Shown: piece by piece, positions 11,355 through 30,692 of the stretch | Numbering within the stretch: the stretch's first letter is position 1 | How the letters are laid out: every line of letters starts with the position of its first letter | DNA from: Clostridium sp. CAG:567 | GTDB taxonomy: Bacteria; Bacillota; Clostridia; TANB77; CAG-508 | Length of the DNA stretch: 64,000 nucleotides | Direction: 5' to 3' | NCBI GenBank assembly: GCA_000437855.1 | Contig: FR902206.1 | Coordinates: 138,608-202,607 of the forward strand | Notes under the pieces: generated by a model | What the model was told of the DNA's origin: nothing | Seen by the model: only the letters and a program-made list of their open reading frames with translations | Databases searched by the model: none | Translations under genes and position numbers: made by a program

Positions 11355-11428
<74 letters not shown>

Positions 11429-11437
11429 TTTGAAATC

Positions 11438-11473
11438 AACTTACGGACTTAAAAGTTCGTAAGTTTTTATTTT
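11438..11473 (+). terminator. Rho-independent terminator after tRNA-Gly
   Basis: aacttacggac-ttaaaa-gttcgtaagtt followed by tttatttt. Confidence 0.7.
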
Positions 11474-11689
11474 ATATAAATAATCTTCAAAAAAGAGGAA
11501 AAAATTATCAGAATAATTTAATCCTCTTTTTTATTTTTTGAATATGGGAATAAAATCTATGTCTAGCCAACACTGAATTTGTACTCCCAAACAAATTCTT
11601 ATATGGGGAATACCCCAAACCCCTAAATACAAATCAAGATTTATGTTGGTTTTAGCAATGTATATTATGTAATTATTGGAACAATTCAA

Positions 11690-12730
11690 TTACCTTGATA
11701 CTCCGTAATTTATTTCTCTACTTTTAATGGTACTTTTATAAGTATCATTAACAAATTTATCTGCTAGTTCATTAACACCTATACCGTTTCTATTATTGTG
11801 ACCTCTGCCTAAAATTATTTTATGTTGAACATCAATTCCTAGGCTTTGCAATATTTGAATTGTTTTTTGTGCTCTAGAAAACATTTCTGTTCCTAAAACA
11901 CTTCTTTGATATTTTCCGACTTCTGTTGGCACGCTTCTATCAAAATAACTCATATCATGCATAGGAGCAGGTTGGCCAAAATCATCAAACCTTGAGTTTG
12001 ATTTGTTTTGTGTTTCAAGTTCTCCAACATAATATCTAAACTTAATTTTTGAATAGCTTTCTAAATCAAATCTCTTGCCTGTTAAAGATTCATAATCAGC
12101 TATTCCTAACGGATAAGCCAATTTTTCTGTTGGAATAGGAATACTACCACTTGCACCACCTATACAAGCAGTTTCAACAATGTCCGGATGTAATAAAGCA
12201 AATCGTTGTGCAAAGACTCCCGAACTTGAATATCCATTTAAAAATATTCTATCTTTTACAACTAATCCTCTTTCTTGTTCCAAAATAGATTTTGCTCTAC
12301 AAATAATTTTAACTACTTGCTCATCTATTCTATAATTTCTATCATCCCTTGAAATACTAAAACAATCTTGAGATAATTGTTGTAAATACGGATAATCTCT
12401 ATAGCTTGGTATTAATGGAATAACAATAGGGCTCGGCAAATCTCTTGTTAATTGTGCTAATCTAATTCCTGTTTGAGTTCCTTGTTCTATAATTTCTTGT
12501 AAATTTCCACTTTCTAAATTGTTTGCTTCTACCACAAGTTGGCCATTTGTATTTTCTGATAACGGAATTGCAAAAATACATGGTATATTAATACCTTTAT
12601 TCATATCAGTAGCTAAAAATTTTATTTTATATGGAATTCCATTAATTTGATATTCTAAATCTATATCTCTACCATGCTCCAATTCGCTAGATACATATCT
12701 TATAAATTCATCTTTATTCATACTTATCAC
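11690..12730 (-). CDS. Hypothetical alpha/beta-hydrolase-like protein (GYSSSG nucleophile elbow)
   Basis: 346 aa with an LNGYSSSGVFAQRFALLHPD GxSxG motif. I do not recognise the family. Confidence 0.55.
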   Translation of the reverse strand: MISMNKDEFIRYVSSELEHGRDIDLEYQINGIPYKIKFLATDMNKGINIPCIFAIPLSENTNGQLVVEANNLESGNLQEIIEQGTQTGIRLAQLTRDLPSPIVIPLIPSYRDYPYLQQLSQDCFSISRDDRNYRIDEQVVKIICRAKSILEQERGLVVKDRIFLNGYSSSGVFAQRFALLHPDIVETACIGGASGSIPIPTEKLAYPLGIADYESLTGKRFDLESYSKIKFRYYVGELETQNKSNSRFDDFGQPAPMHDMSYFDRSVPTEVGKYQRSVLGTEMFSRAQKTIQILQSLGIDVQHKIILGRGHNNRNGIGVNELADKFVNDTYKSTIKSREINYGVSR

Positions 12731-12974
12731 CTATACAATATAATATTAAAGTTTTATTTTATCTAAAATAATTATAACATATAAATTAAAATTCTTCTAT
12801 CTTTCGGAGAAAATAAAGTTTTATTACTATTGAAATCATACAGAAATTAATATATAATATTTATAGAAAGAGAGAGTTGTAGTTCGTAAGCTGTAGCTTA
12901 ACCGCTCCACAAAAAAACTTACGAATTTAATTGTTCATAAGTTTTTTTATGTAATTCAGCCATATTAAATTTTT

Positions 12975-13622
12975 TTATTTAAATTTTAATTGCTCATTCA
13001 TATTTTCTAATTTTTTTATACTAGAATTATCCTTTAATAACTTTAGCTGCCTTTGTGCAGTTTTATTCAACTTTACAAGTCTTTCACTTTGCGAAATACC
13101 AGTAGTTATCATTTCTGCGTTTAAGTTTTCAAGATTTGCTAATACAACTAAATGTAGAATATCCGTATAGTCTCTAATATTTCCACTTAAATCAGGGTTG
13201 CTTTCATGCCATTCTTTTGCGGTGATACCAAATAAAGCAACATTTAAAACATCGGCTTCGTTTGCGTATATAAATTGTTTTTGCTTTTCGGTCAGCGTAG
13301 GGACAATAAATTCTTTTATACTATCAGTGTGAATAACATAGTTTGTTTTAGATAATTCTCTTTTTACAGACCATTCGATTTTACTTTGATAGGCTTCGTT
13401 TTTCTTAAGCCTTTCAAACTCAGTTATTAGATATAATTTGAATTCTACATTTAGCCAACTTGCAAATTCAAAAGCAATATCAGGATGAGCAAAGGTTCCT
13501 AAACTATATTTTCCACTACTTGGAATAATTCCAATAGCATTAAAATCCTTTTTCCAACGATTTGGAGTCATAGTAAAACGATTGTATCCAACTTCAGCAA
13601 CTTTAATTCTGTGTGATTCCAC
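12975..13622 (-). CDS. KilA-N domain protein (phage/mobile-element-associated DNA-binding domain) with a C-terminal coiled coil
   Basis: RFTMTPNRWKKDFNAIGII...FAHPDIAFEFASWLNVEFKLYLITEF. Confidence 0.7.
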   Translation of the reverse strand: MESHRIKVAEVGYNRFTMTPNRWKKDFNAIGIIPSSGKYSLGTFAHPDIAFEFASWLNVEFKLYLITEFERLKKNEAYQSKIEWSVKRELSKTNYVIHTDSIKEFIVPTLTEKQKQFIYANEADVLNVALFGITAKEWHESNPDLSGNIRDYTDILHLVVLANLENLNAEMITTGISQSERLVKLNKTAQRQLKLLKDNSSIKKLENMNEQLKFK

Positions 13623-13674
13623 GGAATTAAAATTGTCATTATTTAATTCAAGAGCAAAAATGAAAAAATATTGC

Positions 13675-14754
13675 CTATTTTAAAGAATAACTATTATTTA
13701 TTATTGAAATACTGTATATGAATAACACATCTTTATTATCAAAATTAATATAATTTCCTAATATTGTGGGTGAGATGTATCTAGTATCTACTAGAGTTAT
13801 TTTACTATAAGAACTTAATAACAAAGGTGCTAAACTACTTCCATACGAGTCTCTAAAAATTATCAATTCTTTTCCGCTAGTGTTTTTATCGTTAAAAATA
13901 GTTAAAAGGGGAGTAGCACCAGACAAATATATGTCATACTTGTCTAATGAATTTTTTTTATTTAAATCATATACATTAGTATAAGTATTAGTTGTATAAT
14001 TAAATACTCTGGCATTTTTTAATATGTCGTTAGTCATTATATTTATTTCATCAAAGTCAGTATTTACAGGTACTCGATAAGCATAAGTACCTTTAAACTT
14101 TGCAATATTCTCAACATTATAACTAGAACTTGAATAATTGTTCATACCTTTTAAGAGCTCATCAGCAACCTTTTGGATGTTTTCTTGTTTCCAATGGCTA
14201 TCAGTTTTATAATAGTCAGTTAAATTTAATTTGTCTAATATCTTTATATATGTGGCAAAATCTAAATTTTCTTTCATTTTACTTTCAAGCAAATCATAAT
14301 CAATTTTTAAATTATTATCATTTACAAAATAATTTTTATCTGGAACAATTGAAAAATATATCTTGTTATTGGCTAAATACTTATTTTTTATATCTGTAAT
14401 TTTTTTTGTTAAATTTGTCACAGAAGCATAAGAAAGAGGATAGGTCTGCTCAACTAAATAATCGTTTTTAATATAAATGTTATGATAGTTTCCTTTGAAA
14501 GTTAAGTCTAGCTTAGCTTTGGCAGTTCTAAAATTATCTCTACTAATAAATTGATCATTTACATAGGTATCAAATTTACTAAAAAATGTACCATTAAATA
14601 AATTCTGTAATGTAAAACTTGGAAACTGCTCAAGCTTACGCCTTTCGGCAATAGATATTTCTGTATCTGGTTTTAATATATTTAAAACAAATACTAATAG
14701 TAATATTGTTAAAAATAAAACAGATACAATTATATTTTTAAATTTATTACTCAT
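13675..14754 (-). CDS. DHHW-motif protein (AlgJ/AlgX-like SGNH partner of an MBOAT acyltransferase), N-terminal TM anchor
   Basis: KTDSHWKQEN DHHW motif. N-terminal signal anchor. Immediately downstream of the MBOAT gene. Confidence 0.75.
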   Translation of the reverse strand: MSNKFKNIIVSVLFLTILLLVFVLNILKPDTEISIAERRKLEQFPSFTLQNLFNGTFFSKFDTYVNDQFISRDNFRTAKAKLDLTFKGNYHNIYIKNDYLVEQTYPLSYASVTNLTKKITDIKNKYLANNKIYFSIVPDKNYFVNDNNLKIDYDLLESKMKENLDFATYIKILDKLNLTDYYKTDSHWKQENIQKVADELLKGMNNYSSSSYNVENIAKFKGTYAYRVPVNTDFDEINIMTNDILKNARVFNYTTNTYTNVYDLNKKNSLDKYDIYLSGATPLLTIFNDKNTSGKELIIFRDSYGSSLAPLLLSSYSKITLVDTRYISPTILGNYINFDNKDVLFIYSISIINNSYSLK

Positions 14755-14764
14755 ATTTCACCTT

Positions 14765-16156
14765 CTAAAACCTAAAATATAAAAATGGGTTGAATGAATT
14801 ATCTACTAAAAATATTGTCACAATACCTAATAATAAAATCATGTAAATAGGTTGCAAAATATTTATAATTTTGTTCCATTTTGAGTTACTACTTAATTTA
14901 TTTACCAAATTACGTAATAATGGGGTAGAGCCTATTATTCCTAAAATAATAATTACGGCATAACCTTTTAAGTAGTAAAGTGTAGTATCATTTATTAAAG
15001 CTTCATTATTAAGTCCAAATAATCCTTTAATTATTACTCCAATTTGACTCATATCTGTTGACTGGAATATAACAAAACTAATCATAACAATAAATAAAGT
15101 ATAAATTCTTTTTATAATATTTGGCGACTTTTCAATAAGTTTATTAAATACAAATTTTTCTAAAATTAGTATAACACCAAATAATGAGCCCCACAAAACA
15201 AAATTCCAACTTGAACCATGCCATAGACCAGTTAAAGCCCAAACAATTAAGATATTTCTTATCTGAATTGTTATACCACGTCTATTTCCACCTAGAGGAA
15301 TGTATACATAATCTCTAAACCATGAACTTAAAGTCATATGCCATTTTCTCCAGAATTCAGTTATACTTTTTGCAGTGTATGGGTAATCAAAATTCTCTGG
15401 AAAATGAAAACCGAAAATTCTTCCTAATCCTATTGCTATATCTGAATAGCCAGAAAAGTCAAAATATATTTGTAACATATAACTAATTGCAAAAATCCAA
15501 TAAAATAAAATACTTTTATCAGGTACTGAAGAAAATACATTACACAATTCACCTAGGCTATTTGCTATTATTACTTTTTTAGCAAGTCCTATGGTGAATC
15601 TATTAGCACCATAAGCAAAGTTTTCGAATGTATGCTTTCTGTTGTCTAGTTCATTAGCAATAGAGTTATACCTTACTATTGGACCAGCTATAAGTTGAGG
15701 GAAGAAAAATACATAAGTTGCAAATTTAAAAAAGTTCTTTTGAGCAGATACTTTTTTGTTAAATACATCAACTTCATAACTGATTATTTGAAATGTGTAA
15801 AATGATATTCCTATTGGTAATACTAAATTTAGTAATGAAATATCAATATTAAATATGCTATTTATATTTTCTGTAATAAAAGTTAGATATTTAAATATAC
15901 ACAAAAATAAAATATGTATAAATATTGATAAAGCTAAAATGCCTTTATTTTTATGCTTGTCAATCAACAATGCAGAAAAATAGGCAATAGCTATTTCTAA
16001 AATCATCAATAATATATATTTAGGTTCTCCATAAAAATAAAATAATATAGAAGAAAGGAGAAGAACCATATTTTTAAATTTATTAGGCAATATAAAATAT
16101 ACCGCTAATACTATGGGAAGAAAGTAGTATATAAAGCTAATACTTGTAAAAACCAT
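14765..16156 (-). CDS. MBOAT family membrane-bound O-acyltransferase (AlgI/DltB/PatA-like)
   Basis: 463 aa polytopic protein with conserved His in LWHGSSWNFVLWG. Paired with the DHHW gene. Confidence 0.88.
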   Translation of the reverse strand: MVFTSISFIYYFLPIVLAVYFILPNKFKNMVLLLSSILFYFYGEPKYILLMILEIAIAYFSALLIDKHKNKGILALSIFIHILFLCIFKYLTFITENINSIFNIDISLLNLVLPIGISFYTFQIISYEVDVFNKKVSAQKNFFKFATYVFFFPQLIAGPIVRYNSIANELDNRKHTFENFAYGANRFTIGLAKKVIIANSLGELCNVFSSVPDKSILFYWIFAISYMLQIYFDFSGYSDIAIGLGRIFGFHFPENFDYPYTAKSITEFWRKWHMTLSSWFRDYVYIPLGGNRRGITIQIRNILIVWALTGLWHGSSWNFVLWGSLFGVILILEKFVFNKLIEKSPNIIKRIYTLFIVMISFVIFQSTDMSQIGVIIKGLFGLNNEALINDTTLYYLKGYAVIIILGIIGSTPLLRNLVNKLSSNSKWNKIINILQPIYMILLLGIVTIFLVDNSFNPFLYFRF

Positions 16157-16180
16157 AACTATAATCCTTTCAGAAAGTTA

Positions 16181-16267
16181 AAAAGTGTGCCATTGGGGAC
16201 GGAGAATATTGGCACGTTTTAAAATTCTTAACGTGCCAATATTCTCCGTCCCCAATGGCACACTTTT
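16181..16267. repeat. Palindromic intergenic element, copy 1: 38-bp perfect inverted arms around an 11-nt loop; core TGTGCCATTGGGGACGGAGAATATTGGCAC
   Basis: aaaagtgtgccattggggacggagaatattggcacgtt / ttaaaattctt / aacgtgccaatattctccgtccccaatggcacactttt. About 50% GC in a genome of under 30% GC. The same 30-mer recurs at 42531-42634. Confidence 0.85.
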
Positions 16268-16269
16268 GA

Positions 16270-16887
16270 TTATTGTACTATCATTTCAGGTGGAAGTTCA
16301 TAATCAGAATTTTCTGATTTTTCTAATTCTTTTCCAACTTCGTTATTTACGTATTTTTTAAATGAATCATAAACTGGTTTTGCCCAATCTTCATATGACA
16401 TTACATAGAATATTACATTATTGTGATTTGTAATATAGAACTTTTCAGCAGATACACAAATCCATTTATTCATATCTACATTGTCATAAATTTCTTGTTT
16501 AACTTGTTCGATATTTGCATTATTTTTTAGTTTTATAGCAACTAATGAGTATGCTTGAGAACTCATTACAGGTTCAGACACTACTAATTCTTCAACATTA
16601 TCATTATTGGATAAAAATGTATATGAAGAAACAACATTATTATCAGACAAACCAATTTTTTGAGTTTCTAATGATGGCAATTCAACATTTGAGTTTTTAT
16701 AAATTGTATCAATCATAGTCTTCAAATTAATAGAAGAATTATTAGTAGAATTTTGGTTAGTTATCATATAAATTGCAACACCAGCTATAATAACTAAAAT
16801 GGCAATAATTAAAATAATAATTGAACCCTTTTTCAAAAAAATCCCTCCTTCTGAATACATTTTACCCAAGAAGGAGGTTTTAGTCAA
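16270..16887 (-). CDS. Hypothetical membrane-anchored/secreted protein (DUF4358-like)
   Basis: 205 aa, N-terminal TM segment, last gene of the Zn-ribbon/PrsW operon. Confidence 0.5.
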   Translation of the reverse strand: MTKTSFLGKMYSEGGIFLKKGSIIILIIAILVIIAGVAIYMITNQNSTNNSSINLKTMIDTIYKNSNVELPSLETQKIGLSDNNVVSSYTFLSNNDNVEELVVSEPVMSSQAYSLVAIKLKNNANIEQVKQEIYDNVDMNKWICVSAEKFYITNHNNVIFYVMSYEDWAKPVYDSFKKYVNNEVGKELEKSENSDYELPPEMIVQ

Positions 16888-30331: not shown

Positions 30332-30692
30332 GAAGTAGTAAGTTGGATAGTCGCGTATAGCAAGGCTGAAAAGCAGCGTACGAGGAAAGTCTGGGCTCCA
30401 TAGAGTAATGATGCTGGATAACGTCCAGTGAGGGCAACCTTAAGGAAAGTGCAACAGAAAATAACCGCTATGATAAAATTTATAGTAAGGGTGAAAAGGC
30501 AGGGTAAGAGCCTACCACTAATATGGTGACATATTAGGCAGTGTAAACCCCATCTGGAGCAACACCGAGCAGGAAGGATAAGACTACTCGTCGTCTTCCA
30601 ATTTGGTGGCATGAGACTTATAGCAATATAAGTAGTAGATAAATGACTATCTTAAATGACAGAACCCGGCTTATAGATTTACTATTTAAAGA
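30332..30692 (+). ncRNA. rnpB: RNase P RNA (bacterial type A)
   Basis: GAGGAAAGTCTGGGCTCCATAG (P4 5' strand) at 30382, AGGGCAACC, AAGTGCAACAGAAA, and ACAGAACCCGGCTTA (P4 3' strand) at 30659-30673. The 5' and 3' ends can pair as P1. Confidence 0.85.

Follow-up and report, generated by a model that had tools for sequence, protein, structure and literature searches.

In a 64,000-nt stretch of the genome of Clostridium sp. CAG:567 (contig FR902206.1), referred to here as the window, an 87-bp perfect palindrome at positions 16181 to 16267, element A, lies between the genes for a 205-aa protein and an MBOAT protein. Element A is a member of a real, dispersed, low-copy family of palindromic repeats that is clade restricted, having been found only in closely related uncultured gut Clostridia among the collections searched. 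We consider it probable, with some reservation, that element A is a repeat of the kind represented by REPINs (doublets of repetitive extragenic palindromic [REP] sequences) or miniature inverted-repeat transposable elements (MITEs), which now serves as a putative terminator or processing hairpin. Two inverted arms, each a short imperfect hairpin, on either side of an AT-rich spacer constitute the architecture of a REPIN or MITE. The family is a clade-specific addition to the known class of palindromic or selfish intergenic repeats, and nothing suggests a new mechanism.

Element A consists of two 38-nt segments (16181-16218 and 16230-16267) that are 100% complementary and separated by 11 nt, as stated in the preliminary description, which had been made from the letters of the window alone. 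The RNA folding proposed there as a check gave -71.3 kcal/mol (z -17.5) for the minus strand, which is the coding strand at this site, and -72.6 kcal/mol (z -16.5) for the plus strand. Both halves contain the 30-mer TGTGCCATTGGGGACGGAGAATATTGGCAC, the family arm, present as the left arm at 16186-16215 on the plus strand and, in inverted form, as the right arm at 16233-16262 on the minus strand. Exactly four copies occur in the window, namely, at 16186+ and 16233- in element A and at 42531+ and 42605- in a second element, B, and none are expected by chance (mean of 0.00 matches with up to 3 mismatches in 100 dinucleotide shuffles). The G+C content of the 30-mer is 53%, against 25 to 31% for the window, and both the sharing of the 30-mer by all four arms and the elevated G+C content of the inverted pair had been recognized correctly. 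A lone arm forms a weak RNA hairpin (-7 to -8 kcal/mol; -7.3 kcal/mol in one computation) with a 6-bp GTGCCA/TGGCAC stem and a G-rich loop of 17 nt; the earlier view of the arm as a near-palindrome with these half-sites stands, with their spacing corrected from 18 to 17 nt. The AT-rich 17-nt spacer between the arms (GTTTTAAAATTCTTAAC, 16216-16232) pairs in its outer 3 nt on each side and occurs in both orientations among lineages. On the coding strand, an A tract (AAAAG, 16263-16267), which contributes the outermost 5 bp to the stem of 38 bp, opens the hairpin on its 5' side, and a terminator-like T tract (CUUUUU, 16180-16185) lies directly on its 3' side; AAAAAG and CTTTT thus bracket the palindrome, and CUUUUUAACUUU follows the hairpin immediately on the coding strand. 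Element A is present in many independent assemblies and is therefore no assembly artefact.

The loci of the family were collected through an exact 19- to 20-mer within the arm, so that only exact-core matches were retrieved, and the related stretches compared with the window are identified below by L-numbers. The 20-nt arm core was present in 3 of 185,579 species-representative genomes, all three being metagenome-assembled genomes (MAGs) of uncultured Clostridia from Hadza gut samples, with 91 to 97% identity to the window where shared. The 19-nt core retrieved 55 metagenome stretches, approximately 48 of them with a real arm and mostly from human-gut assemblies, the remainder being chance matches without an arm, whereas viral contigs and plasmid and phage collections yielded zero matches. 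Exact-core matches amounted to 2 to 6 loci per sample (maximum of about 6), the copy number is estimated at approximately 5 to 8 loci per genome, and a profile search for diverged arms over more than 500 kb of related sequence gave no additional copies. Sorted by their flanks, the copies fall into five locus kinds with unrelated, nonhomologous surroundings: (A) between the 205-aa gene and the MBOAT gene (window 16181-16267); (B) between yebC and spoIIIAA (window 42531-42634); (C) between the convergent genes ftsH and rluA, the latter encoding an RluA-family protein; (D) between the convergent genes rpsI and yunB; and (E) single arms beside paralogous genes for large LPXTG surface proteins. The arms are therefore not confined to two loci with homologous flanks, as would be expected of a simple local duplication, and the preliminary proposal of a dispersed REP- or MITE-like element is borne out. 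A search of Rfam that had also been proposed, run on the window and the related loci at gathering and permissive thresholds, found at the element only eukaryotic microRNA-precursor models below threshold; these are generic long hairpins, and no family reached its gathering threshold there, the Rfam matches elsewhere in the window being RNase P RNA and a tRNA.

Comparison with relatives lacking the element links the family to intrinsic terminators, since at loci A and C the element sits exactly in place of the terminator stem-loop of the relatives, with the A and T tracts kept. In relatives with 92% and 86% RluA identity, locus C is a 23-nt gap that reads AAAAAAA-TAACTGTGTGA-loop-TCACACAGTTA-TTTTTT, a textbook bidirectional terminator (-22.3 kcal/mol, z -9.2). 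In the filled version, AAAAA and TTTTT enclose a 102-bp element, the former stem is gone, and T5 is present on both strands between the convergent genes; the rluA frame enters the arm, giving 292 instead of 284 aa with the tail ..VPMGTENIGTF. Relatives with 81% and 71% MBOAT identity carry, after the orthologous upstream gene at locus A, AAACTTCCAAT-ttgact-ATTGGAAGTTTTTT or AAATAGGCAT..ATGCCTATTTTT, where the clade of the window has AAAAG, the element, and CTTTTT, the T tract of the window matching the one that follows the ordinary terminator stem of the relatives. Elsewhere, arms adjoin the T run of an existing terminator (locus D variants, E loci, L067, and L079), and past the element of L059 come the T run and downstream sequence that trail the terminator stem in the empty site. 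Elements A and C thus bear the hallmark of an intrinsic terminator, a hairpin with a T run immediately behind it where a transcription unit ends. The opposite had been maintained earlier, namely, that element A has no T run and is not a plain terminator; both statements are at odds with the tracts that bracket the palindrome and with the terminators found in its place at locus A and at the ftsH/rluA locus. The accompanying remark that the stem is far longer than a terminator needs was accurate, as intrinsic terminators have a short stem of about 5 to 14 bp and a loop of 3 to 8 nt, dimensions exceeded by the 38 bp and 11 nt of element A.

The setting of element A bears on its possible role. The gap from the stop of the 205-aa open reading frame (ORF) at 16270 to the MBOAT start at 16156 measures 113 nt, of which element A takes up 87, in line with the earlier statement that it fills this gap. 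The upstream gene (16270-16887, minus strand) encodes a membrane-anchored protein without a Pfam match, and its stop codon lies 2 nt from element A; the downstream MBOAT gene (PF03062; 14765-16156, minus strand) has its ATG 24 nt past the element. A promoter consensus scan found no promoter-like sequence in these 24 nt, although the terminator and promoter consensus scans were uninformative overall, the loop exceeding the limit of the scanner and the promoter matches being at chance level. One relative without the element, L070 (636-660), has TTGACT in the loop of the ordinary terminator upstream of MBOAT and TATAAT past the T run, so that the MBOAT promoter may overlap the terminator there; no equivalent MBOAT promoter is visible in the clade of the window.

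The architecture is shared throughout the family. A full member comprises a plus arm, an AT-rich spacer of 17, 42, or 44 nt, and a minus arm, totaling 77 to 104 bp with 30-bp terminal arms, and its stem measures either 38 bp with an 11-nt loop or 30 to 32 bp with a 40- to 44-nt interior. Element B (42531-42634) has the same two arms (42531-42560, plus; 42605-42634, minus) around a 44-nt spacer (42561-42604), and its RNA folds with -62 to -67 kcal/mol and a z of about -12 (-66.7 kcal/mol, z -11.6, in one computation). Between loci, the arms vary at four positions, with a complementary change in the partner arm each time; 91.9% of cells were paired, and none of 500 shuffles reached the observed pairing or covariation. 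Covariation within the hairpin of a single arm was mixed (one compensated, two wobble, and two mismatched variants) and was not used as evidence. Loci C and D have spacers that are about 80% alike, with a first part to which the 17-nt spacer of A is similar; therefore, whole units, and not arms alone, were copied. Inverted spacers within collinear flanks were observed at locus A (L007 and L048), locus B (L059), and locus C (L009). Arms start with TGTGCC, CGTGCC, or CATGCC and end with GGCAC(A/G), CCGTC being found solely inside the loop, and their asymmetric core, GGGACGGAGAATATTGGCA, hardly varies between loci or between species, partly as a result of the retrieval method. At locus C, two MAGs shared 57/60 positions in the arms, 36/42 in the spacer, and 265/300 in the flanks; that arms diverge less than spacers or flanks is only suggestive, because retrieval of the loci depended on an exact match within the arm.

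Presence/absence polymorphism at orthologous sites was seen between related genomes, the sites being filled, reduced to one arm, decayed, or empty. The pair at locus B is present in the window and four assemblies, and in L059 as a pair with a flipped spacer and in a slightly different register. At the same locus, L079 has one nearly intact arm (2 changes) within the same flanks as the pair of the window, L067 and L080 have single AT-decayed arms in either orientation, and L065 and L066 are empty, the yebC hairpin, T7, attcta, and TAAAGGGG being followed directly by the ATG. Single-arm versions with both flanks intact also occur at locus C (L039) and locus D (L012 and L024). Paired arms carry 0 to 3 changes each, in contrast to the heavily decayed singles of L067 and L080, albeit in a small sample. 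Comparison of filled with empty sites at loci A, B, and C revealed no target-site duplication, the flanks of the element being complementary A/T tracts or unrelated sequence without a direct repeat. Since each arm begins with GTGCCA and ends with TGGCAC, the two arms of a pair supply short direct repeats, and a deletion between these would leave exactly the plus or minus single arms observed.

Several known systems share features with this family. Classical MITEs derived from insertion sequences (IS) likewise have terminal inverted repeats, small size, and presence/absence polymorphism, but the family shows no target-site duplication, and no parent IS was seen among the matches inspected. The Correia (NEMIS) elements of Neisseria are short and nonautonomous, with long terminal inverted repeats; they are cotranscribed and form long RNA hairpins that can terminate transcription or be cut by RNase III, and they duplicate a TA target and number hundreds of copies, whereas the present family has no target duplication and is very small. 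A bidirectional Rho-independent terminator is comparable in its A tract, G+C-richer hairpin, and T tract at gene ends but not in the much longer stem, in the sequence common to unrelated loci, or in copies B and D, which have no T tract.

The closest match in architecture and behavior is provided by the REPINs of Pseudomonas and Enterobacteria, mobilized by tyrosine (HUH/Y1) transposases associated with REPs (RAYTs), which consist of two inverted imperfect palindromes with a less conserved, variable spacer, form one long hairpin, and are intergenic. REPINs have been described as including A/T-flanked doublets and decaying singlets, with excision leaving a singlet (PMC3337134); the doublets flanked by A/T runs are thought to have been co-opted for attenuation, and inheritance is largely vertical (PMC3337134; PMC3116915). 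Their doublets are better conserved than singlets, as in our small sample of this family. The family differs from REPINs in five respects: (i) its arms have no GTAG (or CGTC) tag at their end; (ii) instead of a tight REP palindrome, each arm comprises 30 bp and has a 17-nt loop; (iii) it has about 5 to 8 loci, compared with tens to hundreds of REPIN copies per genome; (iv) no RAYT was found in the window, in the Pfam-annotated neighborhoods, or by a weak tblastn search over 533 kb; and (v) the host is an uncultured Clostridia clade. Group 1 RAYTs are present in Clostridia, where the flanking 16-mer has about 12 copies (PMC5581495). TIRtrons, in which terminal inverted repeats (TIRs) are associated with TIRYT tyrosine transposases, are comparable in their moderate or low copy number and in having long inverted repeats that are self-complementary in part (Di Nocera et al. 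2013, PMC3733652). Their repeats are unrelated to GTAG REPs and occur as singles, dimers, or clusters, and some share the motif GGGGWSAS, to which GGGGACGG in the arm conforms at 7 of 8 positions, an imperfect likeness that is a lead only (PMC3733652). No TIRYT gene flanked by the arms was seen, and the main text of the TIR families paper mentions neither Clostridia nor Firmicutes (PMC3733652).

Reading element A as a REPIN- or MITE-like repeat put to use at a gene end, we envisage that the repeat would have spread as DNA among "safe" intergenic sites at terminators in the ancestor of the clade, with some later turnover and with mostly vertical inheritance at present. Two candidate routes of copying may be considered: (i) a trans-acting enzyme of the Y1/HUH type recognizing the arm hairpin, and (ii) transposase-free template switching from terminator to terminator through the A/T tracts. 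Recombination between arms could flip the spacer, and deletion between the dyad-derived short direct repeats could produce single arms that then decay toward AT. Spacer flips, covariation of the arms, and collapse to single arms are all expected of perfect palindromes through intrastrand pairing and template switching and require no dedicated enzyme. At the RNA level, where every step is deduced from the sequence, the 38-bp helix followed by CUUUUU would act as a terminator or attenuator between the 205-aa gene and MBOAT and would probably be a processing or stabilizing site for double-strand RNases. MBOAT expression would depend on read-through past element A, because only 24 nt without promoter-like sequence precede its ATG.

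A number of observations weigh against this reading. Most copies occupy the same orthologous sites across species, so that any recent movement would be conjectural; the conservation of the arms is in part an ascertainment effect of retrieval by an exact 19- to 20-mer. The arms do not carry the GTAG tag that defines RAYT-mobilized REPs, and the copy number is low, with no more than 6 loci matched in any one sample. No transposase or recombinase was found in the window, whose gene list is otherwise one of housekeeping and sporulation genes, or at the loci with inspected ORFs, gene calls, and Pfam annotation. No transposase flanks any of the approximately 57 real exact-core matches classified or inspected, a check that the preliminary description had proposed, and none is present among the genes beyond one side of the window. 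A tblastn search for a Y1 transposase, with an IS200 TnpA as query against 533 kb of related sequence, was negative, this being a weak test, and no larger element with these ends appeared among the matches inspected. With regard to termination, the hairpin is not followed by a T tract at locus B in the window or at locus D; a stem of 38 bp and a loop of 11 nt lie outside the limits of the terminator scanner, which makes no call; and between a strong terminator and the MBOAT ATG 24 nt away there is no space for a separate promoter.

The best of the alternatives, which we regard as possible but rather unlikely, dispenses with a transposase altogether: the hairpin would be copied between terminators by replication template switching or ectopic conversion, with the A/T tracts as microhomology, and would persist because it still terminates. 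This would account for the exact replacement, at loci A and C, of the old stem-loop between the A tract and the T tract that were kept, the low copy number with neither target duplication nor a transposase found, and the homology among the spacers of C, D, and part of A, hence the copying of whole units. However, locus B in the window and locus D have no complementary A/T tract flanks, and 5 to 7 nt of microhomology is very short for repeated precise conversion; we know of no documented precedent for such copying between terminators, although no search was made.

Somewhat less probable still is the explanation that the arm is the recognition hairpin of a dedicated, vertically inherited protein of the clade, for instance a Y1/HUH transposase (RAYT/TIRYT type) that has been domesticated or a termination factor that binds RNA. 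If the explanation were true, the family would represent a REPIN-RAYT-like partnership with an untagged (non-GTAG) repeat, for which we know of no description in Clostridia; its copies would be recruited, sequence-identical "designer" terminators, and the flips and the single arms at surface-protein genes would reflect activity of the protein rather than passive palindrome instability.

Two regulatory explanations appear very unlikely, neither more so than the other. The first, raised in the preliminary description, is that the arm is a high-affinity operator of a dimeric DNA-binding regulator and that the elements define its regulon. The ends of the arm are dyad symmetric (GTGCCA-N17-TGGCAC), its asymmetric core GGGACGGAGAATATTGGCA is nearly invariant over loci and species, and the spoIIIAA ribosome-binding site comes just after element B. 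Yet loci C and D, enclosed by convergent gene ends, have no promoter, the neighbors (MBOAT, spoIIIA, ftsH/rluA, rpsI/yunB, and surface proteins) have unrelated functions, relatives with 76 to 92% protein identity have no site or only a decayed arm, and the invariance of the core comes in part from how the loci were found. According to the second, the arms are RNA recognition elements of regulated termination, with read-through controlled by a trans-acting protein or by a single-arm small RNA from the E loci. In the E loci, every single arm has a T run behind it and, ahead of it, a conserved module resembling TTGTCA..N19..TATAAT, the second-transcribed arm of every element is complementary to the E single arm, and the 17-nt loop is invariant while the stem has wobble or compensatory variants. 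Against these points, the promoter is no more than a guess from consensus resemblance, in paralogous DNA that was duplicated recently, an intramolecular stem of 30 to 38 bp would beat any trans pairing, and there is no Rfam match.

Least credible of all is that the arms are sites of a site-specific invertase (an inverton or shufflon) with spacer orientation as a programmed switch: both spacer orientations do occur at loci A, B, and C within collinear flanks, a single arm is apparently flipped between the ends of paralogous surface-protein genes (L004 versus L008), and many contigs break inside the element, but segments of 17 to 44 bp are far shorter than known invertible segments and contain no convincing promoter, the neighborhoods inspected contain no recombinase gene, flips are seen only between lineages and never inside one sample, and loop inversion is general to perfect palindromes, just as perfect inverted repeats break short-read assemblies anyway. 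An active shufflon at the surface-protein genes was likewise rejected, the seemingly alternative junctions in one MAG being, as read by eye, paralogues that differ at 5 of about 150 nt (approximately 3% of positions). Further candidates were discarded: a sigma-54 promoter (TGGCAC-N5-TTGC) and a set of known operator, parS, and dif consensus sequences did not fit, by inspection only; a CRISPR-like array is ruled out by repeats that are inverted and only two per site; and the idea of an integron attC site or gene cassette, which came from a Fic gene between two direct arms in L004, was dropped, as other arm-bounded segments carry housekeeping genes (those of L008 contain pcrA and a ZIP transporter).

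Other features of the window and of the related stretches may be described in their own right. Element B is flanked by the yebC terminator and, 2 nt past its other end, by the ribosome-binding site of spoIIIAA. The terminator, 15 nt upstream of element B, is an ordinary AT-rich terminator-like hairpin with a T7 run (42472-42515, plus strand; -19.3 kcal/mol, z -6.7), and this hairpin is kept in relatives without element B. The spoIIIAA gene (42651-43544, plus strand) encodes 297 aa, but gene callers often extend it upstream across element B; an ORF runs through the element (window 42501-42650), and SpoIIIAA is recorded with 327 or 347 aa instead. The inner arm ends at 42555-42590 read TTGGCA, which is -35-like, and with the spacer of B give TTGGCA-19 nt-TGgTGTAAT directed toward spoIIIAA; this promoter-like signal is weak and absent at other loci, and the scan flagged the mirror-image site on the minus strand.

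At the E loci, a module is kept between paralogues that comprises TTGTCA..N19..(C/T)ATAAT, GGGAAGCACA, a single arm, and a T run, and it lies approximately 225 nt upstream of, and divergent from, the surface-protein genes (L003 190-300; L005 20-150; L008 1800-1930; L016, L052, and, on the reverse strand, L004). The module could be a small transcription unit; some modules have a 22-nt tandem duplication of the 5' half of the arm. Directly after single arms beside LPXTG genes there are short direct arrays, with a period of about 50 to 60 nt, of another hairpin repeat, which is unrelated to the arms and carries a GTAG tag, GTAGCGGAGCACAGTGTGCTCC (L003 309-428; L008 1947-2078; L016 240-360; L052 219-340; L004 1458; L030 1128), of which there is none in the window. 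RAYT-type sequences resembling REPs are therefore present in the clade, and the repeat would lend circumstantial support to the presence of a Y1 enzyme in these genomes. In L004 (150-1535), two single arms in direct orientation enclose a Fic/DOC and winged-helix gene (274-1332), which has an LPXTG gene on its upstream side and the 5' region of another surface-protein gene on its downstream side.

Rearranged sites were also noted. In some genomes, a 4.75-kb stretch of the window (11426-16180), containing a 1.48-kb islet by the tRNA gene, a KilA-N gene, and the DHHW and MBOAT genes, is absent (compare L044 1-130 and L064 3100-3260), and the tRNA terminator hairpin is joined straight to element A, with the junction 2 nt inside the outer end of the arm. 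The 1.48-kb insert (11426-12912) has one 346-aa ORF without a Pfam match, lies between the 3' end of the tRNA and a second, inverted copy of the tRNA terminator hairpin (11433-11468 and 12913-12948), and is edged by repeated GCTCCA, resembling a small integrated islet without an integrase. L047 (1-87) joins a locus-B-type spacer, an arm of the locus D variant, and the right flank of locus D, which may represent either recombination between elements of different loci or an assembly chimera, the contig being too short to decide. The RNase P RNA (class A, 274 bits; 30335-30689) and the tRNA gene (11355-11425) of the window are ordinary and unrelated to the palindromes.

To conclude, the family offers a Gram-positive gut-commensal example of the REP/REPIN/MITE class, most studies of which concern Proteobacteria. 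At a practical level, the element misleads gene callers (SpoIIIAA and RluA; window 42501-42650, L018 10057-10095, and L076 10843-10879) and breaks short-read assemblies of abundant uncultured gut bacteria. Two of its loci present a clean before and after, with an ordinary stem-loop in one species and a palindrome of the repeat family in its sister, the tracts being kept, and such pairs of replaced terminators provide direct comparative evidence on how selfish palindromes turn into functional parts of transcription units.

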